Counted from the first letter of the stretch, positions 8,933 through 43,506 are shown. The stretch is DNA of 64,000 bases from Candidatus Poribacteria bacterium (GCA_964291315.2 OZ219750.1:288001-352000), one strand, 5' to 3'. The notes: generated by a model not told the origin, from the sequence alone. Translations and numbers: made by a program.

Positions 8933-9202
8933 AAGCTAGCAGAGGATGTCAAGTGGTATAATTATGAACATAATTTGTTATTCATAGAGTTTTCGTGCTA
9001 CAAACCATTAGTTTGGAAGCTACGACACCTGTACTTAACAGATTCGGAGGCACAAGAGCAGAACTTTTGGAGCTGTTTCACTGACCCGCGTCCCGACCGA
9101 GAATATAATGGAAGAAATAGATTCTGTCTGTTTCTATACTAAATCTGGGTATCCGAGAGAGCTTATCTAAATGTTGCAACCTGCTTTAGATTGTGCTACA
9201 AA

Positions 9203-11247: not shown

Positions 11248-11307
11248 GAGCAGTAGGTGTATAGAATTTTCTTGATTTTATTCGCCAGATTTCCTATTAG
11301 TTCTAAT

Positions 11308-14592: not shown

Positions 14593-17500
14593 ACGAACTC
14601 CGGATAAAAAGAAATATTGAACAGGTACTTAAAGACTTTCAACGCGGTCCGCTGAAACTGAATGCCAGAAACCTACTTAATGCGCTCGGTTATGAGAGTG
14701 AGATGATAATGGATCTCGAATCTAGTCTCGCTGAGGAATTTATTTCAGTTTTTAGCGAGTTCGGGAAATTGGATCGGCAGCGGGCAATCGTAGACGAGTG
14801 GGAAACTATTGATTTCCTGTTTCAACTCACTGAAGAAGAACTCTCCGGTACAGGCCAGACGCGAATCGTTTTTTCTAACCGACAGTTTGACGATACGATT
14901 ATGGAGTCCTATGTTTTCTTCGCTTTGAAACTCAGGGAAGACAATTATACCCGCGCACAGCTATCGACAATCACTCGCGAAGTTAACAAAATCATGCCCA
15001 TGCCCGCCATGATAATCTTTCAGCATGGTGAAACCTTGACGCTTGCAGTTATTGATCGCCGTTTGCACAAGCGCGACGAATCAAGAGACGTTCTTGAAAA
15101 GGTAACCCTGATTAAAGATATTGATTTCCACGAGCCGCACCCTGCGCACATTAAGATACTGTTTGACCTATCGCGCAATGAGTTGTTCAGGGTTCACGGT
15201 TTTAGTAACTTTGTCGAACTCCATCGTGCATGGGAAAAGACTTTGGACATTCAGGAACTAAACAGAAAGTTCTATCGTGAACTATCTGATTGGTATTTCT
15301 GGGCGGTAGAGCGTGTTGCGTTCCCGGAAGATGCAGGCAAAGAGGTAGATATCCGCAACGCTACGAGTGTGATCCGTCTGATTACGCGATTGATTTTTGT
15401 CTGGTTCATCAAGGAAAAGAGATTAATCCCGGATATCTTTTTTAATCCGAGGGAGATAGAGGATATCCTTGTTAGCACGGATCCACAGGAGAGTAGCTAC
15501 TACAAGGCTATTCTCCAAAACCTATTCTTTGCCACCCTTAATCAAGAGATGAACACACCTCAGAAATCTGATAACCGTAAATTTCGCGGCAAGGGGCGAC
15601 AACACTACAATATCACATCGCTCTACCGCTATGAAGAATATTTTTCGCATCCAGATGCGGCATTGCGCCATTTTGAGACAATCCCTTTCCTGAATGGTGG
15701 TCTCTTTGAGTGTCTTGATAAGAAAAGTCCCGAGGATTCCAGTAAAATTTTGCGGATTGATGGATTTTCTGATCGGATTGATAATTCGTTGTCTGTTCCG
15801 AATTTTCTGTTTTTTTCTCAGGAAAGGGAGGTTGACCTCAACAAATTCTACGGTACAAAAGGTAAAAGATATAAGGTTCGGGGGTTAATTGAAATTCTGC
15901 GCCGCTACAAGTTTACAATTACTGAGAACACCCCGATTGAAGAGGAAGTCGCCCTTGACCCCGAGTTGCTTGGAAAGGTCTTTGAGAACCTGCTTGCTGC
16001 GTATAACCCTGAAACAGACACGACCGCTCGTAAGCAGACGGGTTCTTTCTACACCCCGCGTGAGGTTGTTAATTACATGGTTGGTGAGTCGCTCATTGCC
16101 TATCTCACAGACGCATTAGATACATCATCTTTTCCTTCTGATGAAGAGGGTCAGGAGGTAACTCTCAAACTCCGGCACCTCTTCTCCTATAGCGACGAAC
16201 CGCATCAATTTACACATATTGAAACCCAGCATCTCATCAACGCTATTGACACCGTCAAAATACTAGATCCTGCGTGTGGATCCGGTGCCTTCCCCATGGG
16301 CGTTCTACATAAGCTGGTTTTCGTTTTGGGAAAACTTGACCCCGGCAATGAGCAGTGGAGACAACGGCAAATCGATAAAGTTGATACCCTTATCAACATG
16401 GCAGAGACTATTGACGACAGCACTGTTCGGCGGAACACCGTCCGTGAGCTCGAACGAGAAAAGGACAATATCAACGAAGCGTTTGAACGCAATGAACTTG
16501 ACTACGGCAGAAAGCTCTATCTCATAGAGAATTGCCTCTACGGTGTAGACATTCAACCGGTTGCTGTCCAGATCGCCAAGCTTCGTTTTTTTATTTCGCT
16601 TGTTGCAGATCAGCGAATTGACGATGCGCAAGAAAACAGAGGCGTGCGTCCGTTACCGAATTTAGAAACCAAGTTTGTAGCGGGAAACACACTTATTCGG
16701 GTGGAGAAACCGGAACAGCTGTCAATGCGGAATCCGGAGATTGATCGGAAGGAAAGGGAATTAAGCGGAGTCCGCCGGAAATACTTCACCGCTCGAACGC
16801 CGAGGACTAAAGAGAAGTGGCGTGTTCTTGATAAGCAGCTCCGCGCCGACATGAGTCTGTTGCTTAGAGATGACGGTTTCCCCAGCGAAACGACTGAAAA
16901 AATCGCCAATTGGGATCCGTATGACCAAAATGCTGTTGCTGATTTCTTTGATGCCGAGTGGATGTTCAATATTGCCGACGGTTTTGATGTTGTGATTGGC
17001 AATCCGCCTTATGTTAATATTGTAAACCTTTCTGTTATACTTAGGGATTATCTGTTCAAGAATTACCGGGCCTGTCAAAGGAGAACCGATATCTACATCG
17101 CTTTTCTTGAAAAATCTATTTCCATCCTTAGTGTGAAGGGAATTATGAGTTTCATTCTTCCATACGCTTTCGCTGTGCAGAAATATGGAGAGAAAATGCG
17201 TCAGATTCTGATAGGAAATCATACTATTCGGGAAATCGTGGATGCTAGTAGTTACCGGATTTTTGAGAACGCTTTTGTGTACAATATTATTTTGACAGTC
17301 GGTAATTATAAAGTACCGGCTCGTACGAAAGTGCGCTTGTATCACAGCAATGAGGATTTTGATAAGGGCGGAGGGACGGAATTCTTGATTGATCAACATT
17401 CTTTTGCGAAGCTCAAAGATTCTCGTCTTGAAACTAAACCTTATGTATTTGACAGTTTGAAGATAAAAGAAAAGATATTACGGTGTTCAGTTCGCTTTGA

Positions 17501-18191
17501 TCAGATTTGTCTTGTCTCTTACGGGGCCAGGCTCAATCATCGCTCAAACAAAAAATTGCGTAAAGTTCATTATATCAGTCAAGTACCAACTTCGGGCAGT
17601 AAACGATTTTGTGAGGGGAAAACATTAAAGCGTTACACCTTTTCTCAGATAGGCTGGTTGAACTATACTCCAGATGAACACTACAACCCGATGTTTCCAG
17701 AGTTGTTTGAGAACAAAAAATTGATGTTTGTTAATATTGTGAAAGATCGGTTACGTTTTGCCTATGATGATGAAGGTTTTTACAACAGTAATACAATTGT
17801 GAATTGCGTCCGATTGGATTTACTTTCGGGTGCGTCTCATATTTCAGCCCGTCGCGCTATTCGAGCTGCTGATAACGGTTTTGCTAAGAAGCATGATTAC
17901 AAGTTTCTTTTGGGTGTGCTGAACTCTGATTTCATCAATTGGTACTTCCGCAACTTTTTAAGCGAAGGGTTACACTTTTATCCAAATGATGCCAAAGAGC
18001 TACCTATCCCTGATGTAGCTTTTGAAAAACAAGCTCCGATTATTGAAATTGTTGATCGAATCCTGATTGCCAAACACACTGATCCAGACGCGGACACGAC
18101 TGAAATGGAAAAAGAGATTGACAAACTGGTATATGCTTTATACGGCTTAACCGATGCTGAGATTGCGGTTGTGGAGGCATTAGAGGGATAA
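14589..18191 (+). CDS. Eco57I/type IIG-like N6-adenine DNA methyltransferase with C-terminal TaqI-like target-recognition region
   Basis: FLNGGLF, LLGKVFENLL, GSFYTPR, ILDPACGSGAF (motif I), VIGNPPY (motif IV), LGVLNS...LPIP...LYGLT tail; ATGA overlap with the helicase. Confidence 0.9.
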   Translation: MNELRIKRNIEQVLKDFQRGPLKLNARNLLNALGYESEMIMDLESSLAEEFISVFSEFGKLDRQRAIVDEWETIDFLFQLTEEELSGTGQTRIVFSNRQFDDTIMESYVFFALKLREDNYTRAQLSTITREVNKIMPMPAMIIFQHGETLTLAVIDRRLHKRDESRDVLEKVTLIKDIDFHEPHPAHIKILFDLSRNELFRVHGFSNFVELHRAWEKTLDIQELNRKFYRELSDWYFWAVERVAFPEDAGKEVDIRNATSVIRLITRLIFVWFIKEKRLIPDIFFNPREIEDILVSTDPQESSYYKAILQNLFFATLNQEMNTPQKSDNRKFRGKGRQHYNITSLYRYEEYFSHPDAALRHFETIPFLNGGLFECLDKKSPEDSSKILRIDGFSDRIDNSLSVPNFLFFSQEREVDLNKFYGTKGKRYKVRGLIEILRRYKFTITENTPIEEEVALDPELLGKVFENLLAAYNPETDTTARKQTGSFYTPREVVNYMVGESLIAYLTDALDTSSFPSDEEGQEVTLKLRHLFSYSDEPHQFTHIETQHLINAIDTVKILDPACGSGAFPMGVLHKLVFVLGKLDPGNEQWRQRQIDKVDTLINMAETIDDSTVRRNTVRELEREKDNINEAFERNELDYGRKLYLIENCLYGVDIQPVAVQIAKLRFFISLVADQRIDDAQENRGVRPLPNLETKFVAGNTLIRVEKPEQLSMRNPEIDRKERELSGVRRKYFTARTPRTKEKWRVLDKQLRADMSLLLRDDGFPSETTEKIANWDPYDQNAVADFFDAEWMFNIADGFDVVIGNPPYVNIVNLSVILRDYLFKNYRACQRRTDIYIAFLEKSISILSVKGIMSFILPYAFAVQKYGEKMRQILIGNHTIREIVDASSYRIFENAFVYNIILTVGNYKVPARTKVRLYHSNEDFDKGGGTEFLIDQHSFAKLKDSRLETKPYVFDSLKIKEKILRCSVRFDQICLVSYGARLNHRSNKKLRKVHYISQVPTSGSKRFCEGKTLKRYTFSQIGWLNYTPDEHYNPMFPELFENKKLMFVNIVKDRLRFAYDDEGFYNSNTIVNCVRLDLLSGASHISARRAIRAADNGFAKKHDYKFLLGVLNSDFINWYFRNFLSEGLHFYPNDAKELPIPDVAFEKQAPIIEIVDRILIAKHTDPDADTTEMEKEIDKLVYALYGLTDAEIAVVEALEG

Positions 18192-28988: not shown

Positions 28989-29747
28989 ATGCGGTTGAAT
29001 AATAAAATTGCTGTTGTCACAGGAGGCGGGCGCGGTATCGGCAGAGCAGCGGCACTCCGGTTTGCTCAAGAGGGAGCCAAAGTTGTTGTTGATGACGTGG
29101 ACGATAGCGCGGGAACGTCGACGGTTTCCGCTATAACAGGTGCAGGCGGTGAAGCACTGTTTGTTAACGCTGATGTTGCCGACCCTGACGATGCAGAAAG
29201 ACTGGCTGCTGAGGCGGTCGATGCTTACGGCACGGTTGACATCCTTGTGAATAATGCTATCTGTTCTACAGCCGATGTACTCAACAATAACTGGGAGGCA
29301 AACCTCGCTGTTGCTCTTCGAGGAACCAGCCACTGTTCCAATGCCGTTATTCCGGTGATGCAAGAGGGCGGAGGAGGTAGTATTGTTAACGTCGCCTCAG
29401 TCAACGGACTTGTCGGATTACAGGCGATTCATGCCTACTCTGCTGCAAAAGGTGGTGTCATCGCACTGACCCGATCCATGGCAGTTGTACACGGTAAAGA
29501 CAACGTTCGTATCAACTGTATATGCCCCGGGACAATTCAGACTGAGGTTTGGGAACCGATGCTTGAACGTAACCCGCAGATCCTAGATGAACTCACATTT
29601 TGGTACCCGTTAGGACGGATTGGACAACCCGTCGATATTGCGAATGCTGCACTCTTTCTGGCATCTGATGAAGCGGGTTTTGCAACGGGGGCGGTCTTTG
29701 TCATTGATGGCGGCTTGACAGCTGGCAATCACCAGTTCCCGATTTGA
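28989..29747 (+). CDS. Short-chain dehydrogenase/reductase
   Basis: TGGGRGIG, NNA, YSAAK. Confidence 0.93.
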   Translation: MRLNNKIAVVTGGGRGIGRAAALRFAQEGAKVVVDDVDDSAGTSTVSAITGAGGEALFVNADVADPDDAERLAAEAVDAYGTVDILVNNAICSTADVLNNNWEANLAVALRGTSHCSNAVIPVMQEGGGGSIVNVASVNGLVGLQAIHAYSAAKGGVIALTRSMAVVHGKDNVRINCICPGTIQTEVWEPMLERNPQILDELTFWYPLGRIGQPVDIANAALFLASDEAGFATGAVFVIDGGLTAGNHQFPI

Positions 29748-29910
29748 AGATCAAAGAAATTACGGCAGATATGCTGAAACAAGAGATTGACCTCTGTTCT
29801 TATACGATATGAAATTGAAGGATACCGTCTCTATACGATAAGCTGCAAGTCCTATGCAAAAAAGATGATAATCCTATATCTCACACATGAAGACAAAAAG
29901 GATGTATCTA

Positions 29911-30605
29911 TATGTCAAAGAAAAGTTTCGACCAAAAACTGATTAATCTTCTCGAAACCAACCCTAACTTTGTTGATGATAGCGGAGCATTCCATCGCCC
30001 GAGCGTCAGGCAACGGGCTTGGAAACTCGACCCCGAGCTCATTCGGACCCTGTGTACCGACGAAGAAATCGCGGCGAAGTTCTTCAAAGAGATAGCAGGA
30101 CGCTGGATCTTCGATAACAACGCCTTCGTTGATTATATCACGGATAAGAACTTCTTTGCCGACTCCTACACCCAGTTCCGCAATAGAATCGGCTTGAACA
30201 TTGATGGCAAGTATCTGCGCGAGCGTGGGGAAGTCGCCCTGGTCTGGCCGTATAAGGATTGCGTATTAGAAGGTGGTCAGACGCGCGAAGAGGAGAGGCG
30301 TAAAGAGATATTCTTCAACGAGGTTCTCGCGCCGGATGAGATAGATCGTATGTTTGATGCGAAGGTTCTGATGGGTTGGGAGCGTCATGGTGTTAGGAGT
30401 ATGGGAGGAGAGGTTGATAAGAGCGGGGGGGGTAATCTGTGATAAGCACATAGAAAATGGAACCCTCGAACTGAAGCGAGATGACGCTGGCGTTATTCGC
30501 GAGAACCTTGTCATCAAAGGCAACAACCTGATTGTCCTGCACACCCTTAAAGAGCAATTTCGCGGGCAGGTCAAACTCATTTACATCGATCCACCGTATA
30601 ATACG
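29911..30605 (+). repeat. Direct repeat, mod 5' conserved block (other copies about 31882-32680 and 35936-36733; copies 2 and 3 also share about 104 bp of upstream DNA)
   Basis: Near-identical nucleotide sequence by visual comparison. Confidence 0.92.
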
Positions 30606-31874
30606 GGAGGTTCATCGGAGACCTTTACCTACAACAACGCCTTTAATCACTCAACGTGGCTGACGTTTATGAAAAATAGGCTTGAAGCATCTCTCGATTT
30701 ATTGACTGCAAACGGAATGATAGTGGTTGCTATTGATGACATTGAAATGTTTTATCTGGGTGTGCTTTTAGATGAAGTTTTTGGTAGACAAAACAAGATC
30801 GGTTTAGTCTGCATTAGACATCACCCTCGTGGTAGAACACAAAGTCGTTTTTTTTCCGCAGTTCATGAATATGCGCTTTTTTATGCCAAAGACATTGAAC
30901 AAGTGACAGAAAATTTTCGCTTTGAAACGGATGATGTAGAAGAAGTAGAATCCTTCATCCGGGGAAGAGAAGATGCAACACCTGAGACTCGACCTACCCT
31001 CTATTATTCAATTTTTTACAACCCCGCGACAGGGGAGATTGCACTCTCTCCGAAGAGTAGTGATTTCATTGAGCTCTTACCGGAAAATAGGAATGGTATG
31101 AGGACTTGGAAACTTGTTAAAGAGTCTTTCTTAAAGGAATTACAAGAAGGCAAAATTGAGGTGCGAAACGTCAACAACAAATATGAAATTTATAGAAAGA
31201 TAGTTAGAGAGAAAAATAAAGCGAAGACAATGTGGACAGAGCCTCGGTATGATGCAAACCCTCATGGTACGGGGCTCCTTAAAAAATTGTTTGATGGGCA
31301 AACTCCGTTTAGCTATCCAAAATCGTTGTATACAATTGTGGACATCCTAAAGCTCACAACGAGTGAGGATGACCTTGTGCTCGACTTCTTTGCGGGCTCA
31401 GGCACTACAGGGCATGCGGTCTTAGAATTAAATAAACAAGACGGAGGATCCCGGCAGTTTATACTCGTAGAACAGTTGGACAAGCACATAGCCGTTTGTA
31501 AAGAACGACTTGAGAAAGTCATTGAAAAAGAAGGGCTTCTCGGAGCACATTTCGTCTCGTGTGAGCTGATGCCTTACAACGAAGTCTTCATGGAACGGAT
31601 CCAGTCGGCAGACACCTCTGCCGAGCTATTGGACATCTGGCACGATATGTCAGAAGATTCCGCTCTCAATTGGTACGTCACCCCGGAGCATCCAGAGGCG
31701 GCAGAGGCACACTTTATCGCTATCAACGACGTTGAGGGACAGAAGCGGCTATTAGCGGAGTTATTGGATAAGAATCAGCTGTATGTGCATCTCTCTGAAA
31801 TAGAGGACGAAACATTTCAGGTCAGTGAGACAGATAAGACGTTGAATAAGGCATTTTACCGCAAACCGCTATGA
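29912..31874 (+). CDS. mod: Type III R-M methyltransferase Mod, copy 1, split by a frameshift at G8 (30425-30432)
   Basis: N-terminal ORF 29912-30442 plus overlapping catalytic ORF with IKGNNL, YIDPPY, YPKS, DFFAGSGTT; G7 or G10 would fuse them. Confidence 0.9.
31378..31858 (+). repeat. Direct repeat, mod 3' conserved block (other copies about 33498-33980 and 37549-38000)
   Basis: Near-identical DNA from the VLDFFAGSGTT codons to the C-terminus. Confidence 0.92.
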
Positions 31875-31985
31875 ACAAACTCATTTGATGGCTTTATTTT
31901 ACCACAAAGTTCTCTTTGGACAACATTGTTAATTCTCTATCAATTCACATTACCTCACACATGAAGACAAAAAGGACACACCTGT

Positions 31986-33996
31986 ATGTCAAAGAAAAGT
32001 TTCGACCAAAAACTGATTAATCTTCTCGAAACCAACCCTAACTTTGTTGATGATAGCGGAGCACTCCATCGCCCGAGCGTCAGGCAACGGGCTTGGAAAC
32101 TCGACCCCGAGCTCATTCGGACCCTGTGTACCGACGAAGAAATCGCGGCGAAGTTCTTCAAAGAGATAGCAGGACGCTGGATCTTCGATAACAACGCCTT
32201 CGTTGATTATATCACGGATAAGAACTTCTTCGCCGACTCCTACACCCAGTTCCGCAATAGAATCGGCTTGAACATTGATGGCAAGTATCTGCGCGAGCGC
32301 GGGGAAGTCGCACTCGTCTGGCCCTATAAGGATTGTGTATTAGAAGGCGGTCAGACGCGCGAAGAGGAGAGGCGTGAAGAGATATTTTTCAACGAGGTTC
32401 TGGCGCCGGATGAGATAGATCGTATGTTTGATGCGAAGGTTCTGACGTGTTGGGAGCGTCATGCTATTAGGGCGATGGGAGGAGAGGTTGATAAGAGCGG
32501 GGGGGGTAATCTGTGATAAGCACATAGAAAGTGGAACCCTCGAACTGAAGCGAGATGACGCTGGCGTTATTCGTGAGAACCTTGTCATCAAAGGCAACAA
32601 CCTGATTGTCCTGCACACCCTTAAAGAGCAATTTCGCGGGCAGGTCAAGCTCATTTGCATCGACCCGCCGTATAATACAGGTGGAGAAGCAAATATTTTC
32701 ACTTATAACAACACTTTCAACCATTCCAGTTGGCTGACCTTTATGAAAAATAGGTTGGATATAGCAAAACAATTGTTGAGAGATGATGGGTTTATCGCAA
32801 TTTCCATAGATCAATATGAGCTTTTATACTTAGGAACGTTAGCTGACGAAATTTTTGGGAGGGATAACCGTATTTCGGTGCTAACCATCGTTCATCATCC
32901 GGCGGGTAAGACCAACAACAATTTTTTCGCAACAACAAACGAATTTATGATAGTGTATGCTAAGAATAGGGAGCTTGCAAAGCTAAGCTTTTTCGAGATG
33001 TCTGAAAAGACTGAGAGGAGCTACCAGCACGTAGATGAGGTTTCACGATACAAACTAGAAAATCTGATGCGAAAGGGGGAAACAAGGAACGCTCGCCGAG
33101 AAGATAGACCGAAACAATTTTATCCCATTTATATCTCTAAGGACCTAAAACAGATTTCTTTGACAAAAGAGGACAACTATTATGAAGTTCTCCCAACAGA
33201 AAATGGGAGAGAATGGGTATGGTCAAATTCACCTTCAACTTTGCAGAAAAAAATAGATAATAACGAAATAGCTGTCAAAAAGCATAAAGATGGATACATT
33301 CAGGTCTTTTTTAAACGAAGAATCACGGATTATCCGGGAGAGCGTCCGAAGAGCACTTGGATTGGTAAAAAGTATAATGCTACGGAACATGGCACCAAAC
33401 TGTTGGAGCGTATATTGGGGAAAAAATCTTTTTCATATCCAAAGTCGTTATACACGATCGTAGACATCATAAAAATTACGACAGAGCCTGGCGATATTGT
33501 GCTGGATTTCTTTGCGGGCTCAGGCACTACAGGACATGCGGTGTTAGAGCTGAATAAAGAGGACGGTGGCAATCGGCAGTTTATCCTTGTAGAACAGTTG
33601 GACAAGCACATAGCCGTTTGTAAAGAACGGCTTCGGAAAGTTATGGAAAAAGAGGGGCTTCTCGGAGCACATTTCGTCTCGTGTGAGCTGATGCCTTACA
33701 ACGAAGTCTTCATGGAACGGATCCACTCGGCGAACACCTCTGCCGAGCTACTGGACATCTGGCACGATATGTCAGAAGATTCCGCACTCAATTGGTACGT
33801 CACCCCGGAGCGTCCAGAGGCGGCAGAGGCACACTTTATCGCTATCAACGACGTTGTGGGACAGAAGCGGCTATTAGCCGAGTTATTGGATAAGAACCAG
33901 CTGTATGTGCATCTCTCTGAAATAGAGGACGAAACATTTCAGGTCAGCGCGGCAGATAAGACGTTGAATAAGGCATTTTATGGTAATCTTATATGA
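31986..33996 (+). CDS. mod: Type III R-M methyltransferase Mod, copy 2, split by a frameshift at G8 (32499-32506)
   Basis: Same architecture; CIDPPY, DFFAGSGTT; central region differs from copies 1 and 3. Confidence 0.9.
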
Positions 33997-34025
33997 ACTA
34001 CCTGAAGCTATCAGTATATGGATAG

Positions 34026-35486
34026 TTAAACACCAAAAAATTCCGAAATACCCTTAATAAGCTTTGAGTAAATACTCAAAGCTCCAGATGTTGTGGACAT
34101 AAGATCAACTGGGGTTTTTCGTGAATTTGAAACATGAAATATGGCATTTCGGTGCATTTTGAGTTTTCGCATTTCTTTAGAAGACGTGAATGTATCCAAT
34201 TTTCTATTGGCTAGTGAAGGATCCTCTTTTGATACAGCATAGTAGATTCTCAGAAGCTCATAAAAAAGAGCTATGTTAACCCTATATGGGGCAATCCACT
34301 CGTCACAATCTTGAAGGCTAAAACTGTTAGGGATGTCTTTACAGATGCAAGATAATTCTTCCTTACTGATTAAAGGATACTGTTTATTTTTTTCCAAAAG
34401 ACTCATATTAACTGAATTTCTTTCGTAAAGAAATTCATTCCACAGTACAACACTAGTCATTAGAATGCGCATGTAGCCTCCTATATTCTCCTTTAGATGG
34501 GTTGCATGCTCCCGGCTACCAAGAAAATTTGATATTTGCCTTCCAGATATCAACATAGCAATTATATGATGTCGCATTGCCGTTTGTTTCTCTACTAGCT
34601 CAGTAGATTGTCCATCAATAATAATAGAGGTTTCTCCTGTTAAGTATTGTGGAATGAAGTGCACTTTAGGCAAAGCCTGATCCAACTCGTTCATGCATTC
34701 TGCAATACAATAGGCTATCTTTATTTGTGTTTGGTTCGGTAACCAGGATTGAATGTTCTCTGGCAATATTTTTATTTTTCGCTTTAGTTCTGGTAACTGA
34801 TCCACACACCACTTCATGCCTGATAGGTTGTGATCAAGTTTCATTTGCTCCATCTTGACTGTTAGAAAGCTATATAGGCAATACAATTTCTGGATTTCCG
34901 GTAGGCAATTAAGAGTGTTTGACAGATAATTGGATAATTTGTCCTGCAGCCTTTGTAGGTATCCATCGAATTTGCATTGCAGGATTGGAGCTAGGTTATG
35001 AGAAGGCTTAACTTGTAAAAATTGACGTTCAGCAGAGAGACTGTCTTTATTCGGATGCAGGAAAGAATCTCGGAATTTCTTTAACCTATCAACCCACTGT
35101 TTGTTGGTTTTCAAATAAGAATCCAGTTCATCATCCCGGTAGATGTTGTGGGTTTTCTTTAATTTTTCGAAAGATTCAATTTCAGCGTAGAACAAAGCAA
35201 GGTACAGTTGAAGCGGATAAACCGTTGCATATTCGATACCAGTTCGATTAGTCTCATTATTTTCTAATCCTTGATCGTTCAGCATCTTCGATTGAATGTC
35301 TTCTATTGTTACCTCGCCTTCGTTTCTATTTTGGCAATACTCAGATGCTTCTGTAAAGTGGATCATATTACGAAATGCTATTTTACGTATGCGCTCAAGA
35401 ATGACTGTCCTATGGTAAAGTAAATTCTTATAAGGGTTAACTATGGATTGTATATTGACAATATCTAGTTTTTCAAGATCTGTCAC
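34026..35486 (-). CDS. AT-rich protein with two duplicated HEPN-like domains (putative RNase/defence effector)
   Basis: GTG start with GGAGG RBS; Rx4H motifs RDSFLH (aa 139-144) and RNAIFH (aa 446-451), each preceded by an alignable P....ALFY...K...LD...LK segment. Confidence 0.7.
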   Translation of the reverse strand: MTDLEKLDIVNIQSIVNPYKNLLYHRTVILERIRKIAFRNMIHFTEASEYCQNRNEGEVTIEDIQSKMLNDQGLENNETNRTGIEYATVYPLQLYLALFYAEIESFEKLKKTHNIYRDDELDSYLKTNKQWVDRLKKFRDSFLHPNKDSLSAERQFLQVKPSHNLAPILQCKFDGYLQRLQDKLSNYLSNTLNCLPEIQKLYCLYSFLTVKMEQMKLDHNLSGMKWCVDQLPELKRKIKILPENIQSWLPNQTQIKIAYCIAECMNELDQALPKVHFIPQYLTGETSIIIDGQSTELVEKQTAMRHHIIAMLISGRQISNFLGSREHATHLKENIGGYMRILMTSVVLWNEFLYERNSVNMSLLEKNKQYPLISKEELSCICKDIPNSFSLQDCDEWIAPYRVNIALFYELLRIYYAVSKEDPSLANRKLDTFTSSKEMRKLKMHRNAIFHVSNSRKTPVDLMSTTSGALSIYSKLIKGISEFFGV

Positions 35487-35586
35487 TTCAATTTCCTCCG
35501 TATTTGCCAGTTGATGTTTTATCCACTACAAATTGCAAATAACATAAGGTGGACTATATAGTTATCGATAATCTTATTTTGGGTAT

Positions 35587-35615
35587 AGTATAGCACAATT
35601 AAATAGGGAAATCAA
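35587..35615 (-). promoter_or_regulatory. Sigma70-type promoter for the dual-HEPN gene
   Basis: Minus strand TTGATT-N17-TATACT with an extended TG. Confidence 0.5.
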
Positions 35616-35899
35616 ATTTCGACCGGGGGTATTTAGTTTTAAAATTTCTCACTGACTGTATGATTTTAACATTAGGTGATTGTTAAACAAAAAAAAGATC
35701 CTTCGTGGTCTTGACCATTGTAACAGTTTATACAGTTTAGGGGCAATCTGAGTTATGTCTAGAAAAATGTCCGATAAATCGGCACGTGAAAAAGCAAGCT
35801 GGCTCTGCTTAGGTCAAAAATAATAAATGTAAAAAAAATAGGCGAAGAAATACAGATACCTGCTCATAAGAGAAAAAAGTCGTTTATTTCGCAGAAAAG

Positions 35900-35908
35900 T
35901 GTTATAAT
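35900..35908 (+). promoter_or_regulatory. Extended -10 promoter upstream of mod3-res
   Basis: TGtTATAAT just before the repeated upstream block. Confidence 0.45.
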
Positions 35909-36039
35909 CTATTATGAGGATTTCTTTTGGAACAACATTTGATGGCTTTATTTTACCACAAAGTTCTCTTTGGACAACATTGTTAATTCTCTATCAATTC
36001 ACATTACCTCACACATGAAGACAAAAAGGACACACCTGT

Positions 36040-38053
36040 ATGTCAAAGAAAAGTTTCGACCAAAAACTGATTAATCTTCTCGAAACCAACCCTAACTTTG
36101 TTGATGATAGCGGAGCACTCCATCGCCCGAGCGTCAGGCAACGGGCTTGGAAACTCGACCCCGAGCTCATTCGGACCCTGTGTACCGACGAAGAAATCGC
36201 GGCGAAGTTCTTCAAAGAGATAGCGGGGCGTTGGATCTTCGATAACAACACCTTCGTTGATTATATCACGGATAAGAACTTCTTCGCCGACTCCTACACC
36301 CAGTTCCGCAATAGAATCGGCTTGAACATTGATGGCAAGTATCTGCGCGAGCGCGGGGAAGTCGCCCTGGTCTGGCCGTATAAGGATTGCGTATTAGAAG
36401 GCGGTCAGACGCGCGAAGAGGAGAGGCGTGAAGAGATATTTTTCAACGAGGTTCTGGCGCCGGATGAGATAGATCGTATGTTTGATGCGAAGGTTCTGAC
36501 GTGTTGGGAGCGTCATGCTGTTAGGAGTATGGGAGGAGAGGTTGATAAGAGCGGGGGGGGTAATCTGTGATAAGCATATAGAAAACGGAAGCCTCGAACT
36601 GAATAGAGATGATGCTGGCGTTATTCGTGAGAACCTTGTCATCAAAGGCAACAACCTGATTGTCCTGCACACCCTTAAAGAACAATTTCGCGGGCGGGTC
36701 AAACTTATTTACATCGATCCACCGTATAATACCAAAGGAGATGCTAACATTTTTGGATATAACAATTCTTTCAATCACTCAAGTTGGTTGACATTTATGA
36801 AAAACAGACTTGATATTGCTCAAGATATGTTATCAGAAAATGGAGTAATAGTTGTTACCATAGATGATTATGAATATGCTCACCTTAAATTGCTATGTGA
36901 TGAGGTTTTCGGCATAAACAATTATATTGGAACTATAGTAATCCAAAACAAGCCAGGTGGTAGGACAATAAACCCCCATTTTGCTACCTGTCACGAATAC
37001 GCTTTATTTTACGCGAAAGCTATTGATAATATAAAAACAAACCTTGTCAAACTCACTAAACAACAAGAGCTGAGCTTCAACTTTAAGGATCAGATTGGCA
37101 GATATCAACTTTCACCATTTAGGCGGGGTGGAGGCTATTCAACACCTGAAGAGAGACCTAATTCTTTCTATCCGATTTACTATAATCCACATGGAAATGA
37201 ATTTTCTCTTAAGAAAAAGGAAGGATTTTTTCAAATTCTCCCCAAAGATTCACACGGGAAAAACCGAGTTTGGCGGCAGACAAAACCCTCTTTTGAAAAA
37301 TTAGTGGAGAAAGGGGAAATCGTCTGTAAAAAGTCTAAAGGCAAATGGAGCTTGTACATAAAGGATCGGATGCCAGAAGGACGGAAAACTAAAACGATAT
37401 GGACTGATTCAAAATATGACGCGTCAGCACATGGAACAATACTTCTTAAAAAGATGTTTGATGGTGAGAAAGTCTTCAGTTATCCTAAATCGATTCATGC
37501 CGTAAAAGATACTATTAATCTTCTAACTCAGCCCAACGATAAAGATATTGTGCTGGATTTCTTTGCGGGTTCAGGCACTACAGGGCATGCGGTGTTAGAG
37601 CTGAATAAAGAGGACGGTGGCGCTCGGCAGTTTATACTTGTAGAACAATTGGACAAGCACATAGCTGTTTGTAAAGAACGACTTGAGAAAGTCATTGAAA
37701 AAGAGGGGCTCCTCGGAGCAAATTTTGTCTCGTGTGAGCTGATGCCTTACAACGAAGTCTTCATGGAACGGATCCAGTCGGCGAACACCTCTGCCGAGCT
37801 ATTGAACATCTGGCACGATATGTCAGAAGATTCCGCTCTCAATTGGTACGTCACCCCGGAGCATCCAGAGGCGGCAGAGGCACACTTTATCGCTATCAAC
37901 GACGTTGAGGGACAGAGGCGGCTATTAGCCGAGCTGTTGGATAAGAACCAGTTGTATGTGCATCTCTCTGAAATAGAGGACGAAACATTTCAGGTCAGTG
38001 AAGCAGACAAAACACTCAATAAGAATTTTTATGAAGGAGATCACGATGCCTAA
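36040..38053 (+). CDS. mod: Type III R-M methyltransferase Mod, copy 3, split by a frameshift at G8 (36553-36560)
   Basis: Same architecture; YIDPPY, DFFAGSGTT; 3' end overlaps the res start. Confidence 0.9.
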
Positions 38054-40649
38054 CCTATTTCTCCATGAAGAACTCGACATCGCATTTAGCTACGGGGTAC
38101 CTAAACCTGAAATACCTGATAGCATTCTTCAAAACCTGAATCCTGCGTTTGAGCTTCGACCTTATCAAGTAGAGGCGTTTGCGAGGTCTATTCACTGTTT
38201 GAACGGAGATCTTCAGGCTAAGCAAAATCCGTCACATCTGCTGTTTAATATGGCAACCGGCAGCGGTAAGACGCTTATTATGGCGGGGCTGATCCTCTAT
38301 CTCTATGAACAAGGCTACCGGAATTTTCTCTTTTTCGTCAATGCCGACAATATCATTGAAAAAACAAAGGATAATTTTCTCAATTCGGGGTCCTCAAAAT
38401 ACCTTTTCAATGCGGACATCTATATCAAAGGCGACAGAGTTAAGGTGACAGAAGTAGAGAATTTTGAAGGAGTCAACGCAAACGACATTAACATCCGATT
38501 TGCGACAATTCAGAAGTTACACAGCGATTTGATGACAGAAAAAGAGAACGCTTTAACCTTTGATAATTTTGAGAAAGAGAGAATCGTTCTTTTGGCTGAC
38601 GAAGCGCACCACCTGAACGTCGCTGCGAGGGCACAACAGATCCAATTGGCTCTCAGCACGAAGAATTCAAAATTGGCTGGGAAGCCGACATGGGAGAACA
38701 CTGTTGAAAAGATATTTAACGCGAACGCCGGCAACTTGTTGCTGGAATTCACAGCTACGTTTGATGACAAAACCCCTGCAATTGTAGAAAAGTATCGGGA
38801 TAAAATCATCTATCGCTATGATTTAGTTCAATTTCGGAACGACAAATATTCAAAGGACATAGAGATTGTGAGGTCTGATTTCAGTCTGGAGGACCGTATT
38901 TTGCAAGCTGTTATTCTTCATTATTACAAGCAGGCAGTTGCTGCAAAACACACGATCCAGCTGAAACCGGTCATTCTGTTTAAGGGAAAAACAATACCGG
39001 ATTCCAAAAAAAATAAAGCGGATTTCCATAAACTTATGGAAAGGCTCACAAAAAATGATATTGAAAGGATTCGGAGGTCTGAAGTTGAAATTATTAAACG
39101 GGCGTTTCGCTTTTTTGATAATCATAAGATCAGTTCCGAGCAGTTGACTCGATCGCTCAAAACGGTCTTCCAGGAAAAATATTGTCTCGCTGTTAACTCG
39201 AAGATAGAGAGAGAGAAGTATCAGGTACAGGTAAACAGACTTGAGGAAAGAGACAATCCCATCCGCGCTATTTTCGCAGTGCAAATGCTCAGCGAAGGAT
39301 GGGATGTGCTGAATCTGTTCGACATCGTCCGCTGTTATGATACCGGTAGCACAGGGCATAACAAAATTGGGAAAGCGACAATTGCGGAGGCACAGCTTAT
39401 TGGGCGTGGGGCGCGTTATTATCCGTTCGCTCTGTCAGGGTACGCGGATAAATACAGGCGCAAATTTGACGAAGACATTGAACATGAACTTCGTGTGCTT
39501 GAGGAACTACATTATCACAGCATTAATGACTCGCCTTACATCACTGAAATCCGAAAGGCCCTGGTCGAGCAAGGGTTGATAGACAAAGAGACTGTGACTC
39601 GAGAGCTTAAATTGAAGGAGAAATTTAAGAAAACGGACCTTTACAAGTACGGTGTTATCTATTTGAATAAACAGGTGTCCAGAGACTATCAATATGTCAA
39701 ATCTTTTGCGGATTTGGCATCCTTGAGTGTGAAAAAGAAATGGCATGAGCATACGATTCACGAAAGCACGGGAGGGATGACGAAGATGATAGGAAAAAAA
39801 CAGACTTATGCCGTGCGGAACACAACTAGCCAAGACATAGCGATGGTCCATATTGAGCGCAATATTGTCCAAACTGCCCTCGCGCGGAATCCATTTTTCC
39901 GGTTTGCATCACTTAAGCGATATTTTCCGCAGTTGAGATCCATGAATGAATTTAGGACATCACCTGACTTTTTGGGGGGCTTGTCAATCACTTTCAAAGG
40001 AGATTTTTCCCAATTGGAAGACAGAGCATCAGAAAAACTGAAGGCGTGTTGCGATCTTTTGAAAAGAATAGAAACCGAACTTCGCCAACAAATTACCGAA
40101 TCTGAAGGTACGAAGTCCTTTCATAAGGAGCAAATCCACGCTATTTTCAAGGACAAGGCCCTGAAGTTCGATGCTAAGAACCCTCGGGCCGATGAGGATC
40201 ACGATGCTGAGCGTCTCGCGAAAGCGGAGAAATGGTTTGCTTTTGATGGGCTATACGGCACCAGCGAAGAAAAAGCCTTCGTACAATTTCTACATACACA
40301 TCTTGAAACATTAGAGGAAACCTACAGCGATATTTATCTGATCCGTAACGAGAGACATTTTTCTATTTATAATTTCCGTGACGGTCGAGCGTTCCAACCC
40401 GATTTTGTCCTCTTCTTAGGAAAGGAAGGCGGAGAAACATTGAGCTATCAACTTTTTATTGAACCGAAAGGTGAACACATTGCAGATTTTGACAGATGGA
40501 AAGAGGGCTTTCTGAAAGAAATTGATAGTGAACATAAGACTGAACTCATAATAGAGGATAAGAAATACCGTATTATCGGTCTACCGTTTTATCAGGAGAG
40601 AAAACAGAATGAATTCCGCGTTGCCCTTGATAAAGCACTGCAATTATAA
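38046..40649 (+). CDS. res: Type III restriction endonuclease Res subunit
   Basis: MATGSGKT, DEAH, EFTAT, LSEGWDVLN, QLIGRGAR; C-terminal FQPDF...FIEPKG (PD-ExK); RBS GAAGGAG. Confidence 0.93.
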   Translation: MPNLFLHEELDIAFSYGVPKPEIPDSILQNLNPAFELRPYQVEAFARSIHCLNGDLQAKQNPSHLLFNMATGSGKTLIMAGLILYLYEQGYRNFLFFVNADNIIEKTKDNFLNSGSSKYLFNADIYIKGDRVKVTEVENFEGVNANDINIRFATIQKLHSDLMTEKENALTFDNFEKERIVLLADEAHHLNVAARAQQIQLALSTKNSKLAGKPTWENTVEKIFNANAGNLLLEFTATFDDKTPAIVEKYRDKIIYRYDLVQFRNDKYSKDIEIVRSDFSLEDRILQAVILHYYKQAVAAKHTIQLKPVILFKGKTIPDSKKNKADFHKLMERLTKNDIERIRRSEVEIIKRAFRFFDNHKISSEQLTRSLKTVFQEKYCLAVNSKIEREKYQVQVNRLEERDNPIRAIFAVQMLSEGWDVLNLFDIVRCYDTGSTGHNKIGKATIAEAQLIGRGARYYPFALSGYADKYRRKFDEDIEHELRVLEELHYHSINDSPYITEIRKALVEQGLIDKETVTRELKLKEKFKKTDLYKYGVIYLNKQVSRDYQYVKSFADLASLSVKKKWHEHTIHESTGGMTKMIGKKQTYAVRNTTSQDIAMVHIERNIVQTALARNPFFRFASLKRYFPQLRSMNEFRTSPDFLGGLSITFKGDFSQLEDRASEKLKACCDLLKRIETELRQQITESEGTKSFHKEQIHAIFKDKALKFDAKNPRADEDHDAERLAKAEKWFAFDGLYGTSEEKAFVQFLHTHLETLEETYSDIYLIRNERHFSIYNFRDGRAFQPDFVLFLGKEGGETLSYQLFIEPKGEHIADFDRWKEGFLKEIDSEHKTELIIEDKKYRIIGLPFYQERKQNEFRVALDKALQL

Positions 40650-40675
40650 ACATCAAATGTATCAGGAGGGGTACG

Positions 40676-41527
40676 ATGGTAACACGTGAGCAGACCGACT
40701 TTTTTCACGAAAACGGATATGTCAAGTTTGGCAGGGTTTTAGATAACGATGGCGTTGAAGCGATGCGGGCAGGATTGGATGCAGTCATTCAGCTGGAGCT
40801 TGCTGCAGGCGATGATTCGTCCCCGGAGTTCAAGTACGGGCATGATCGCGGCGGAGATAGACTTAATCGAGGGGGTGGGCACCCGCGGGCGATTCACCAA
40901 TACATTAATATGTGGAAGCGTGATCCGCGCTATGAGGCAGCTATTCACCATCCGCTCATTGCAGGTACAGCCCGCGCCTTGTTAGATACTCCGGAGGTCC
41001 GCCTTTGGCACGATCAGGTTATCTCCAAGCCGCCTCACGACAACGGGCACTTCGGATTCCATCACGATTTTTTCTTTTGGCCCCTCAGCCCACCGAACAT
41101 TGTCAGCTGCTGGCTAGCGCTTGATGACGCAACAGTTGATAGTGGTTGTATGCACGTTATGCCGGGGAGCCATAAAGACCAACGTTTCTCTGTCGCAGCA
41201 CGAGCGACAGCAGAAGCGGCAGCGGTGAAAGCGCGCGAAGAAGGACGTGAACTGCCGGTCGACCCGTGGGCGGAAAGACGAAATTTGGACATCAGCCACG
41301 GGATTCCCGTAGAATTGGAGGCAGGCGAATGCATGTTCCACCACTGTCTGAATTTCCACGGCACGCCGCCGAATGTCACAGCGCGTCAACGGCGCGCGTT
41401 CGTTATGATTTTCATGGCTCAGGATGTCTGCTTTAACAAGGTGCAGTCACCGAACCATGTGCTTGTTCCAACAATAACGGTTGCGGATGGAGAACCGCTT
41501 GTCGGAGACGGATTTCCGGTAGCCTAG
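40676..41527 (+). CDS. Phytanoyl-CoA dioxygenase (PhyH)-family Fe/2OG enzyme
   Basis: FFHENGYV, HHD (HxD), WLALDDAT, PGSH, FHGT.PN...RRA. Confidence 0.88.
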   Translation: MVTREQTDFFHENGYVKFGRVLDNDGVEAMRAGLDAVIQLELAAGDDSSPEFKYGHDRGGDRLNRGGGHPRAIHQYINMWKRDPRYEAAIHHPLIAGTARALLDTPEVRLWHDQVISKPPHDNGHFGFHHDFFFWPLSPPNIVSCWLALDDATVDSGCMHVMPGSHKDQRFSVAARATAEAAAVKAREEGRELPVDPWAERRNLDISHGIPVELEAGECMFHHCLNFHGTPPNVTARQRRAFVMIFMAQDVCFNKVQSPNHVLVPTITVADGEPLVGDGFPVA

Positions 41528-41561
41528 CTTTGTAACGGATTTCCGGTAGCCTAGCTTTGTA
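41508..41561 (+). repeat. Perfect 27-bp tandem duplication covering the PhyH stop codon
   Basis: ACGGATTTCCGGTAGCCTAGCTTTGTA x2 (41508-41534, 41535-41561). Confidence 0.92.
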
Positions 41562-41619
41562 CAGGATCTGTGTTACAAACCGCATCTACAGCACAGGAAG
41601 CGAGGCGAGAGGTGATCAG

Positions 41620-42825
41620 ATGAAAGATTCAACGTTTATAACAAGGGTTCAACTGAAAAATTATAAGAGTATCGCGGCATGTGATGTGCAGATGCGGTCT
41701 TTGACGTTCCTTGTAGGGCGCAACGGTTCAGGGAAAAGTAATTTTCTTGATGCCCTACGTTTCGTTGCCGATGCGTTGAATCTATCACTGGACCACGCTG
41801 TACGCGACCGAGGTGGTATTAGCGATGTGCGCCGTCGCTCTCGTGGGCACCCAAATCATTTCAATATTCGTCTTGAATTTGCTCTGCCTGAAGGCTCTAC
41901 GGGCCACTACACTTTTCAAATCAGGACGCGTTCACCTGGCGGTTACAAGGTCCAAGCTGAAGAGTGTAAGATTCAGAACAAGCTGTCCCTTATGCCGGAG
42001 GAATACTTTTTTGTTGATGAGGGTACCGTGACGCGCAAAAGTGTTGATGTAGCCCCGGCGGCGGCTACTGATAGACTGTATTTGGTAAACGCTTCTGGTT
42101 TGCCCGAATTTCGCCCTGTCTATGAAGCGTTCTCTCAAATGGGATTTTATAGTCTCAACCCCGAGAAGATTCGTGATCTGCAGGCACCAGATTCCGGCGA
42201 TATGCTCCTTCGTGACGGGAGTAACTTAACAAGTGTGCTTACTCGGCTTTCGCCCACCGTAAAGAGGGACATTGAACGATATCTTGCACGAATTGTTCCT
42301 GGGGTTCATACGGTAGATGTCAAAAATTTTGGACCGAGGGAGACATTGGAGTTCAGACAAGTTGTCACGGGGGACAAACACCCCTGGAAATTTCTTGCGA
42401 ATAATATGTCTGCCGGTACACTCCGCGTATTCGGAATTCTGGTAGCACTATTTCAAGGGCGGTGTGATGTCCAAAAGCATGTACCCCTTGTCGGCATTGA
42501 GGAACCAGAGCTGGCCCTCCATCCGGCAGCTGCAGGGGTGCTGCTTGAGGTACTTCAGGATGCTGCTCGCAAGACGCAAGTTATCGTCACCAGTCACAGT
42601 CCGGATTTGCTCGATGATAAACACTTGGATCTGGAATCGATTCTTGCAGTCGAGGCGCATGAGGGAAATACGGCAATCGCTCCTATAGACGAAGTAGGGA
42701 GGTCTGTATTGCACGATCGACTCTATACAACAGGGGAACTCCTTCGGCTTGATGAGCTACGACCTGATCCAACTCGGGCATCTATAGGTGATAAGGCGGC
42801 CGGAAAGCAGCTTGATTTGTTCTAG
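41620..42825 (+). CDS. AAA_21/RecF-SMC-like ABC-type ATPase
   Basis: LKNYKSI, GRNGSGKSN, MSAGTLR signature, GIEEPELALHP, TSHSP. Confidence 0.88.
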   Translation: MKDSTFITRVQLKNYKSIAACDVQMRSLTFLVGRNGSGKSNFLDALRFVADALNLSLDHAVRDRGGISDVRRRSRGHPNHFNIRLEFALPEGSTGHYTFQIRTRSPGGYKVQAEECKIQNKLSLMPEEYFFVDEGTVTRKSVDVAPAAATDRLYLVNASGLPEFRPVYEAFSQMGFYSLNPEKIRDLQAPDSGDMLLRDGSNLTSVLTRLSPTVKRDIERYLARIVPGVHTVDVKNFGPRETLEFRQVVTGDKHPWKFLANNMSAGTLRVFGILVALFQGRCDVQKHVPLVGIEEPELALHPAAAGVLLEVLQDAARKTQVIVTSHSPDLLDDKHLDLESILAVEAHEGNTAIAPIDEVGRSVLHDRLYTTGELLRLDELRPDPTRASIGDKAAGKQLDLF

Positions 42826-42867
42826 GCTGGTAAAGCGGAGTCAAATCGAGCGTAAAGGAAATATTGA

Positions 42868-43506
42868 GTGGCGGTGAAAATTAGTTGCATTGTTGAAGGG
42901 GATAGTGAATTGGAATCTGTACCTGTCCTGATTAGGCGGGTCTCAGCGATGTGTTATCCTGGTGTGGCGCTTGTCATCCCACGACCTATCCGCATTCCCA
43001 GAAATCGGGTTATTAAAATCGGTGAACTTGAACGAGCAGTTGAGTTGGCTGCTCGGAAGATCCGGAGGCAGGGAGCTATATTTATCATCCTTGATTCTGA
43101 TCGTGATTGCCCGGCGCACTTAGGACCGAAGCTGCTTCAACGGGTTTTACGAACTCATCGAAATCTGCCGGTTGCCGTTGTGCTTGCAAAGTGCGAATTT
43201 GAGGCATGGTTCCTCGCAGCAGCTGAGTCCCTTCGTGGACAAAGAGGGTTAAGAAGCAATATCTACGCGCCGAACGATCCGGAGGCGATCTGTGGGGCAA
43301 AGGAATGGTTAAGTCAGCATATGCAAAATGGGAAAACTTACAAATCAAAGCGCGACCAACCCGCACTCGCAGCGATTTTTGATATAGAGCAGGCGCGTCG
43401 ATCCAATTCGTTTGACAAGTGCTACCGGGAGATCGTTCGTCTCCTCGGCGAGCTGCGAGAACCAGTTAAAATAACCAGTAAATCAATAAGGCAGCTAACA
43501 AAGTAA
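42868..43506 (+). CDS. DUF4276-like (TOPRIM-type) protein partnered with the ATPase
   Basis: IVEGDSE, ILDSD, EFEAWFLA, SNSFDK pattern. Confidence 0.75.
   Translation: MAVKISCIVEGDSELESVPVLIRRVSAMCYPGVALVIPRPIRIPRNRVIKIGELERAVELAARKIRRQGAIFIILDSDRDCPAHLGPKLLQRVLRTHRNLPVAVVLAKCEFEAWFLAAAESLRGQRGLRSNIYAPNDPEAICGAKEWLSQHMQNGKTYKSKRDQPALAAIFDIEQARRSNSFDKCYREIVRLLGELREPVKITSKSIRQLTK

Follow-up and report, generated by a model that had tools for sequence, protein, structure and literature searches.

In Cas13 and AbiF the active site is a composite of Rx4H motifs, and in Cas13 it is assembled within a single chain. The known single-chain enzymes with two HEPN domains come with an obvious means of control, which is a guide RNA in Cas13, CARF in Csm6-2 and a multi-gene machine in CoCoNuT. 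Csm6-2, from a type III-D CRISPR system of Actinomyces procaprae, is described as a fused polypeptide of 797 aa with two HEPN domains and two CARF sensors, in which fusion made the HEPN dimer intramolecular and its ligand site asymmetric (PMC13187428). CnuE of CoCoNuT type III-A likewise has two HEPN domains in one chain, the second with a shortened motif (PMC11090510), and two-HEPN chains are also reported for Csx1-MJ1666 and for Swt1, whose dyad is inactive (PMC3710099). As a set, these three dyads are fused to wHTH, PIN and Rossmann domains. What has been called an archaeal dual HEPN system is presented as two separate inactive genes (10.64898/2026.10.19.760177).

A precedent for single-gene logic is ApeA, a HEPN defence RNase with one HEPN domain per chain, extra domains and a homo-oligomeric state; a conserved pocket distal to its active site is reported to bind deoxydinucleotides or a phage RNA structure (10.64898/2026.01.26.701840, 10.64898/2026.03.20.713152). 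According to PMC3710099, ApeA sometimes lies inside restriction-modification (R-M) operons, at least 16 HEPN clades are linked to R-M, and the HEPN RNases PrrC and RloC can also sit in R-M operons, PrrC carrying an ABC NTPase and being held inactive by its type I system. AbiF is described as being held by an upstream ncRNA (PMC13064643). DARNA, or PD-T7-3, is a one-gene, all-helical protein of 456 aa with an N-terminal HEPN domain and a C-terminal part given as a non-catalytic ssDNA-binding domain; the same preprint gives a distance of about 8 A between the motif histidines for active HEPN sites (10.64898/2026.02.22.705581).

Here we describe a protein of 486 aa that is predicted to hold two HEPN domains in one chain, and refer to it as the tandem-HEPN protein. 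Unlike Csm6-2 it has neither CARF nor a CRISPR link, and no array, guide or sequence similarity was found that would tie it to Cas13. Compared with CnuE, Swt1 and Csx1-MJ1666, both of its motifs are intact and no other domain is fused. It is similar in size to DARNA, but its C-terminal part is a second predicted HEPN domain with an intact motif. ApeA has a single HEPN domain per chain and no sequence match to the tandem-HEPN family in Pfam, PADLOC or NCBIfam, whereas PrrC and RloC differ in having an ABC NTPase; the tandem-HEPN protein has none, has two HEPN domains and is R-M linked in a minority of loci. No antitoxin RNA or sequence likeness connects it to AbiF, and its single-domain relatives form a separate unnamed family. 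In the literature available to us we found no stand-alone protein with two intact HEPN domains and without a sensor or guide, and large tables of defence predictions could list the family unnamed. The family is real and unnamed; it is best read as having ApeA-like logic and a Csm6-2- or Cas13-like architecture, and it is a member of none of these systems.

The gene and its setting

The window, that is, the whole stretch of DNA that was analysed, comprises 64,000 nt of a Candidatus Poribacteria genome (GCA_964291315.2 OZ219750.1:288001-352000). Its relevant features, in window positions, are as follows.

34026..35486, minus strand: tandem-HEPN protein gene, 486 aa, GTG start (AF2 model; family of 135 clusters)
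35495..35499, minus strand: ribosome-binding site GGAGG, 8 nt before the GTG (from sequence)
34902..35486, minus strand: predicted HEPN domain 1, aa 1-195, four-helix bundle (AF2 pLDDT 94.2; VIA-align)
35358..35414, minus strand: conserved polar stretch of helix 1, with H25, R26, E31, R34, R39, N40 and H43 (conservation, interface list)
35055..35072, minus strand: putative catalytic motif 1, R139-D-S-F-L-H144 (R in 83/84, H in 82/84; predicted inter-half interface)
34677..34901, minus strand: helical hairpin or linker region, aa ~196-270, followed by a low-confidence linker at aa ~271-300
34029..34499, minus strand: predicted HEPN domain 2, aa ~330-486 (VIA-align on the whole model; sub-threshold Pfam HEPN_Cthe2314)
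34134..34151, minus strand: putative catalytic motif 2, R446-N-A-I-F-H451 (R in 82/84, H in 81/84; predicted inter-half interface)
35487..35935, minus strand: AT-rich upstream region, with promoter-like sites no more frequent than expected by chance and no sign of a structured RNA
33997..35935, no strand assigned: 1.94-kb cassette of low GC (35.6%), exactly at the boundary of mod units 2 and 3
29912..33996, plus strand: first two type III mod copies, as context; a frameshift in the G8 tract (30425-30432 and 32499-32506) splits each of them
36040..40649, plus strand: type III mod copy 3 (G8 tract 36553-36560) and res, as context

The AT-rich, reverse-strand gene of 486 aa noted in a preliminary description is a real ORF at 34026-35486 (-). 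Its GC content is 36.6%, where the window has 46.3% and the genome, which carries the gene in single copy, has 47.9%. The GTG start is supported because the closest homologues open with M(T/I)DLE. That description also gave the gene its own promoter and ribosome-binding site. The GGAGG site 8 nt before the GTG stands, but a promoter could not be established: sigma-70-like sites in 33900-36100 number 13, against 8.0 +/- 2.4 in shuffled sequences, and are indistinguishable from chance. The candidate closest to the gene on its upstream side reads TTGATT-17-TATACT (35615-35587). Small ORFs upstream of the gene are of 22-34 aa only, and none has support.

Three type III mod units stand in tandem, with res after them, and the gene lies antisense to mod between units 2 and 3. 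The cassette that contains it (33997-35935) spans exactly from the mod 2 stop to the mod 3 leader. A joint from 33980 to 35936 was considered as a cassette-free variant and rejected, as it equals the mod1/mod2 junction already present in the assembly. All three mod genes are frameshifted at their G8 tract, which was overlooked in the preliminary description; the frame downstream of the frameshift contains both methyltransferase motifs and an ATG of its own, and some Mod activity is possible.

A family with an internal duplication and two conserved motifs

Of 4991 candidates from a word-index search, 21 proteins matched at E<=0.001, all of them unnamed, and an exhaustive search extended the family to 135 clusters at 50% identity, 103 of which match at E<=1e-10. 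Full-length homologues, defined as proteins of 415-520 aa, number 84 (from 152). The two Rx4H motifs lie where they had been placed (R139-H144 at 35072-35055 and R446-H451 at 34151-34134), and the repeats quoted around them are present. Their conservation in homologues, a check named beforehand, is high: all four of R139, H144, R446 and H451 are kept in 79/84 full-length homologues, and in the remaining five a motif is missing or changed. Residue by residue, R139 is found in 83, H144 in 82, R446 in 82 and H451 in 81 of the 84. A possible third HEPN motif, an Rx4H-like string at aa 20-25, was dismissed; its R occurs in 37/76 (it is K here), it lies in the middle of helix 1, and it scored 2% against the real motif.

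The internal duplication suggested earlier exceeds chance. In HHalign the N-terminal and C-terminal halves match with a probability of 95-96% and E-values of 3e-8 to 4e-9 over 69 columns (aa 89-159 against 398-467), whereas the middle region of the protein reaches 0.1% with either half. In a tree of the half-domains the N-halves form one clade (27/27, support 0.64) and the C-halves another (28/28, support 0.96), which fits one old duplication; this was a quick FastTree of every third member over about 75 columns with a midpoint root, and is weak. Five proteins of 157-201 aa to which both half-profiles match appear to be single-domain relatives; they carry the motif, with the histidine lost in one. 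They lack the hairpin at aa ~196-270, and four of the five keep the equivalents of H25 and R39. They group with the N-half and are closest in sequence to domain 1, although they were found via the N-half. A further protein, P0126, is a separate tandem form. Since single-domain relatives exist, we suggest that the tandem-HEPN family arose by duplication and fusion.

Existing models barely recognize the family. The only Pfam match is to HEPN_Cthe2314 (PF18730) over the C-terminal motif at aa 420-466 (E 0.0016), at 18.9 bits against a gathering cut-off of 27.1, and a similarly weak match occurs in 2/21 members; PF18730 is a single-domain family, given without operon partners in PMC3710099. PADLOC and NCBIfam scans of the family gave nothing meaningful, with no PADLOC model matching, and sequence searches of the PDB returned coiled-coil noise only. 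ESM Atlas scores were 0.85 or less and serve as leads only, and a first metagenome scan gave 201 pattern matches, none of which was confirmed. Longer (890-2540 aa) or shorter (30-95 aa) forms of the family were not found, in tests that are weak.

Predicted structure and active-site geometry

The AlphaFold2 model, built with 123 sequences, is all-helical (pLDDT 89.8, pTM 0.90). It consists of two four-helix bundles, each with its motif where the third helix ends, joined by a helical hairpin and a loose linker. The N-half modelled alone reaches a pLDDT of 94.2. Foldseek returned no matches at E<=0.001 for the whole model or the N-half against the PDB, or against BFVD.

In VIA-align searches with the whole model, HEPN proteins cover each half. 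The C-half is matched by 1jog on 334-486 (Z 5.4, rmsd 3.6, 104 aligned), 1ylm on 328-485 (Z 5.2) and 7ae2 on 329-486 (Z 5.1), and the N-half by 3jrt on 6-186 (Z 5.2). With the N-half alone, 3jrt ranks first (Z 7.7, rmsd 3.9, 143 of 166), 5yep_B, from an entry that we take to contain the HepT toxin, ranks third (Z 7.3, rmsd 3.6, 118 of 133) and 1jog fifth (Z 7.2). Of these, 3jrt, 1jog and 1ylm are classed as HEPN proteins in PMC3710099. HEPN proteins fill 7 of the best 50 rows, and 8xdj, 4nqf, 6tug and 1ylm appear lower down. Their Z-scores, all below 8 and below the caution level of the tool, tie with those of the designed four-helix bundles 6y07 (Z 7.4) and 7jh6 (Z 7.3), and the fold alone is only suggestive. 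Chains of Cas13, AbiF and ApeA are not among the VIA matches listed and may still be alike in fold. Thus the two HEPN folds that had been proposed agree with the predicted topology, with the position of the motifs and with HEPN proteins at ranks 1, 3 and 5, but Z-scores of 7.2-7.7 shared with generic bundles and an empty Foldseek search do not separate them from other helical bundles. Taking fold, motif position and conservation together, we consider the HEPN identity very likely.

The two halves were also folded as separate chains (aa 1-272 and 296-486). They dock at 0.79, against 0.00 for the best control, a mark reached by 116/157 solved complexes and by 2/215 mismatched pairs. At least 86% of contacts agree between runs, with a partner pLDDT of 71 or more. 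This test tends to be passed by halves of a single gene, partly from likeness to solved HEPN dimers, so the informative part is the composition of the interface. The predicted interface includes R139, residues 141-147, R446 and residues 449-454, as read from interface lists and not from motif-to-motif distances. Of the residues conserved at 85% or more, 19/30 lie within this 97-residue interface (p 9e-8). The contacts have a pseudo-two-fold arrangement, in that 14 of the 25 best contacts have a two-fold mate at register +315 and the other 24 registers give 1-9, where the registers of helices 2 and 3 were set by HHalign and that of helix 1 was scanned. The models therefore support two HEPN domains whose motifs would both lie at a pseudo-two-fold interface of one chain, in line with the self-contained pseudo-dimer that had been envisaged.

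A second conserved polar cluster

Conservation almost as high as that of the motifs is also found in the N-terminal helix and its following loop, a feature that the preliminary description overlooked. H25 is kept in 73/76, R26 in 75/76, E31 in 75/76 and R34 in 72/77 homologues, followed by R39 (78/80), N40 (76/80), H43 (65/80), Q72 (79/84) and R81 (73/84); from the other half come Q301 (72/84), N350 (73/84) and E351 (81/84). When placed by the contact register (29-403-98, 33-403-94, 36-351-91), H25 is predicted to be level with the catalytic motifs, and R39, N40, H43, D71, Q72, R81 and E351 would form a cluster some four helical turns from that level. The C-half does not retain a mirror-image counterpart.

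We infer that R39, N40, H43, M68, D71, Q72 and R81, together with Q301, N350 and E351, form a candidate regulatory (allosteric) pocket, which was deduced from contact lists and conservation and not from coordinates. As a candidate, it may be compared with the conserved distal pocket of ApeA and with the asymmetric ligand site that fusion gave to Csm6-2. The same residues could equally be structural or bind substrate.

Search for an RNA partner

The preliminary description raised the possibility of an uncharacterized Cas13- or AbiF-like relative. Such a protein would be either a type III toxin resembling AbiF, with a cis RNA as its antitoxin, or a compact RNA-guided nuclease of the Cas13 kind. 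Two HEPN domains per chain, as in Cas13, a basic conserved surface and the 449 nt of free DNA upstream of the gene in the window fit such control, and about 90 nt upstream are common to three close relatives (L039, L040 and L043) at 76-79% identity. Against it, none of the 21 homologue loci (some of them short) has a CRISPR array in a simple exact-repeat scan, and neither does the contig of the window, as the earlier remark that no array is visible nearby had implied; the two CRISPR arrays of the genome are on another contig. Rfam gave no matches at E<=1 in 29000-42000, the upstream 449 nt fold worse than shuffled sequences (z +1.5), and the flanks of the window resemble those of no other locus. 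Intergenic gaps are small in L002 (94 nt upstream, an overlap downstream) and L004 (126 nt upstream, 28 nt downstream). Scans of flanks, Rfam and folding thus reveal no conserved cis ncRNA antitoxin, though a short or unconserved RNA may have escaped them. Abi_2-type sequence is found in 0/21 members at E<=1, Pfam, PADLOC and PDB searches detect no similarity to Cas13, and no crRNA-binding lobe is present, as the two HEPN domains and a short hairpin fill the 486 aa. With no array, no Rfam match, no flanking RNA shared across the family and no sequence match, we consider control by RNA extremely unlikely, and the proposed kinship with Cas13 or AbiF is not upheld.

Distribution and genomic neighbourhoods

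The tandem-HEPN gene occurs in 1/176 genomes of its own phylum. GTDB matches are spread over five lineages (Chloroflexota, Gammaproteobacteria, Binatia, Rhodothermaceae and Thermodesulfobacteriota MAGs), and searches around them found the gene in 8/98, 1/126, 6/85, 1/123, 2/38 and 1/120 genomes, counting the centre genome. Only fragments of it are present in 7/20 genomes with a match, and its GC content is below that of its flanks in 12/13 full-length homologue loci. No homologues were found in plasmids, phages or viral contigs. Being sporadic, low in GC and often broken, the gene is best read as horizontally mobile.

Its neighbours are varied. In 2/13 full-length homologue loci (L002 and L004) the gene lies co-oriented between hsd genes in a type I R-M operon, and these operons also carry TIR, PIN, Schlafen, trypsin-like and DUF3800 cargo. 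Including the window, 3/14 full-length loci are linked to R-M, of two types (I and III). Toxin-antitoxin pairs and integrases neighbour L005 and L006, NucC-like or PDC-S11 genes lie beside L005, L033 and L035 (NucC-like in L005 and L033), L036 adjoins a restriction-like nuclease, L041 adjoins a Cas3 HD gene, and cas3 genes neighbour both L041 and L043. Housekeeping, IS or unknown genes surround L003, L007, L014, L034 and L039, those of L007 and L034 being plainly housekeeping. No nameable neighbour family occurs in more than two loci, and there is no conserved partner gene. The DNA-cutting neighbours of the family comprise type I and III R-M, GmrSD, Cas3 and NucC-like systems.

We compared the locus with a fixed-position 13.4-kb control on the same contig in 13 genomes (9 full-length loci and 4 fragmentary), dropping overlapping shadow ORFs by hand and scanning 201/235 test and 148/160 control ORFs. 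Defence or toxin-antitoxin neighbours by Pfam and PADLOC, the latter run on selected ORFs only, occur in 10/13 loci and 3/13 controls (p 0.017), and by Pfam alone in 7/13 and 3/13 (p 0.23). This enrichment is suggestive, and a defence role for the tandem-HEPN protein is plausible. The neighbourhood survey proposed at the outset returned a possibly defence-related setting, with R-M operons in only 2/13 loci.

This bears on the idea, drawn earlier by analogy to PrrC, that the protein is an abortive-infection guard of the R-M system: an RNase held inactive by the R-M complex and freed when a phage blocks restriction. The placement of the gene inside a type III R-M locus in the window and inside type I loci in L002 and L004, together with the number of R-M-linked HEPN clades mentioned above, would favour a guard. 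However, 11/13 full-length homologue loci are outside R-M operons, both type I operons are crowded with other cargo, and type I and type III complexes present different surfaces. The tandem-HEPN protein has no ABC NTPase domain of the PrrC/RloC kind, and the weak search for a longer fused form found none. In the window the gene is antisense to mod and res; it is missing from all 64 same-genus genomes, 48 of which have related mod DNA. In addition, full-length Mod-Res may often be absent because all mod copies are frameshifted at their G8 tracts, a situation that a guarded toxin would tolerate badly; the possible Mod activity of the downstream frame weakens this point. We regard the guard role as quite unlikely, and read the position in the mod array as insertion into a recombining defence hotspot, with no obligate link to R-M.

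The neighbourhoods also speak to a dependence on cyclic oligonucleotides, in which the protein would be an orphan signal-dependent effector, or a nuclease that degrades the signal, for cyclic oligonucleotides made by type III CRISPR or CBASS elsewhere in the genome. The asymmetric site that arose by fusion of two HEPN modules in Csm6-2 is reported to be one for cA5 (PMC13187428), and the NucC-like and cas3 neighbours are in keeping with this reading. On the other hand, no cyclase or cas10 was found in any locus scanned, and the family has no CARF or SAVED domain, with one CARF-like match (E 0.018) in 1/21 members. This role is very unlikely. An MNT antitoxin, as in HepT/MntA, was also sought; no neighbour of at least 100 aa in the 21 loci has a Pfam match to it.

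The protein might also have no part in defence. It could instead be a toxin (selfish or stress-related), an enzyme with a mild role in RNA processing, or a helical protein outside the HEPN superfamily whose Rx4H motifs bind metal or a ligand. Modest structural scores, several housekeeping contexts, an enrichment that is not significant by Pfam alone and the lack of an antitoxin, which suits a non-toxic protein, are compatible with this. Two near-invariant Rx4H motifs that end helix 3 of each predicted bundle, both at the two-fold interface, and the patchy, low-GC and frequently broken distribution argue the other way, and we find a function outside defence unlikely.

A putative self-regulated RNase effector

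For a gene with an observed duplication, conserved motifs, a sporadic distribution and no travelling partner, and with a HEPN fold and an interface containing both motifs predicted by models, the best explanation is that it probably encodes a stand-alone, mobile, self-regulated single-gene RNase effector of anti-phage defence. In this scenario, a small homodimeric HEPN protein would have been duplicated and fused into one chain, within which R139/H144 and R446/H451 would build one composite active site. Given that neither an antitoxin gene nor an RNA was found to accompany the gene and that the chain has no separate sensor domain, the RNase is probably kept off by its own structure. A ligand derived from infection (a nucleotide, oligonucleotide, phage protein or RNA) would probably switch it on by binding the second polar site, which would lie at the opposite end of the interface between the domains, and the activated RNase may cut tRNA or mRNA and so stall the infected cell or the phage.

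A more specific and rather doubtful version is that the duplication broke the symmetry of the HEPN dimer, leaving one composite site and one asymmetric pocket that would read a nucleic-acid danger signal, for example short pieces of DNA left by restriction or by phages degrading the genome. Such a signal would explain why the gene has repeatedly landed beside DNA-cutting systems, none of which is required. If true, the family would represent a new class of minimal immune RNase, a 486-aa monomer switchable by a ligand.

From the perspective of HEPN evolution, the single-domain relatives and P0126 offer a natural series from a HEPN homodimer to an asymmetric single chain, a step that also lies behind Cas13. 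Considering that the tandem-HEPN family apparently lacks a control module, it raises the question of how a pre-assembled HEPN site stays off and what triggers it. If the protein is ligand-gated, a monomeric RNase of 486 aa would make a compact reporter enzyme. The family in any case adds a candidate defence gene that has no annotation and escapes PADLOC, NCBIfam and Pfam.

Relatives of the tandem-HEPN protein and their surroundings

Among the family relatives P0140, P0144, P0147, P0151, P0152 and P0126 are unannotated HEPN-like single-domain proteins of 157-201 aa and a separate tandem form of 395 aa (P0126), and none of these six proteins had a match in Pfam or PADLOC. The homologue of genome G403 is broken between its two HEPN halves (L008 and L045, at C1:461387 and 479785), so that 18 kb separate the halves and each is on a different strand. 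Transposases are found near the halves, and GmrSD, ThiF, Panacea and a PD-Lambda-4A-like protein are among the neighbours.

Repeats flank the homologue in two other loci. In L034, a 156-nt direct repeat (88% identical) is present on both sides of 8060-9548; an 83-nt inverted repeat brackets 7989-9455 in L006 and is present again downstream in L033. It is possible that the flanking repeats of L034 and L006 are mobilising elements.

In L002 and L004 the homologue is held by cargo-crowded type I R-M operons.

Cargo of type I R-M operons that hold a homologue
L002, 2684-15505: two TIR genes, a PDC-M50A-like gene and a PIN pair
L004, 3219-16775: trypsin-like, Schlafen-AlbA and DUF3800 genes

Defence genes of the window

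Shortly 3' of res, the window encodes an ATPase and a DUF4276 protein (41557-43506) that match PADLOC HEC-01A and HEC-01B (E 1e-160 and 2e-68), and a perfect 27-nt tandem duplication (41508-41561) lies ahead of this gene pair. A second defence locus, at 11257-18191, encodes a PLD-SNF2 helicase (1111 aa) and, after it, a methyltransferase of Eco57I/TaqI type (1205 aa); this locus is DISARM- or type IIG-like.

The type III mod array (29912-38053) consists of three tandem mod paralogues (mod1-mod3), with different central specificity regions; a single res is common to all three. An identical G8 tract frameshifts each mod gene, and tract-bearing copies also occur elsewhere in the same genome (G000).

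Tract-bearing mod copies of the genome
Window 30425: G8 tract
Window 32499: G8 tract
Window 36553: G8 tract
C1:431880: copy outside the window
C1:468874: copy outside the window
C4:1696779: copy outside the window
C4:3175487: copy outside the window

None of the seven copies is in frame; six have a G8 tract and one has G9. Among congener loci, 7 of 24 have a tract at the same mod position (G6, G7, G8, G9, G9, G10 and G11), the sole open copy being that with G6. Contigs of run X1 show a fall in cover across the mod3 tract (window 36459-36619), and one has an additional G after 36695; both could come from variation between strains, from homopolymer error or from a graph that breaks where a tract is variable. 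Among the papers listed, phase-variable mod genes come mainly from pathogens. The mod genes of this Poribacteria bacterium look like a multi-copy phase-variable methyltransferase array.
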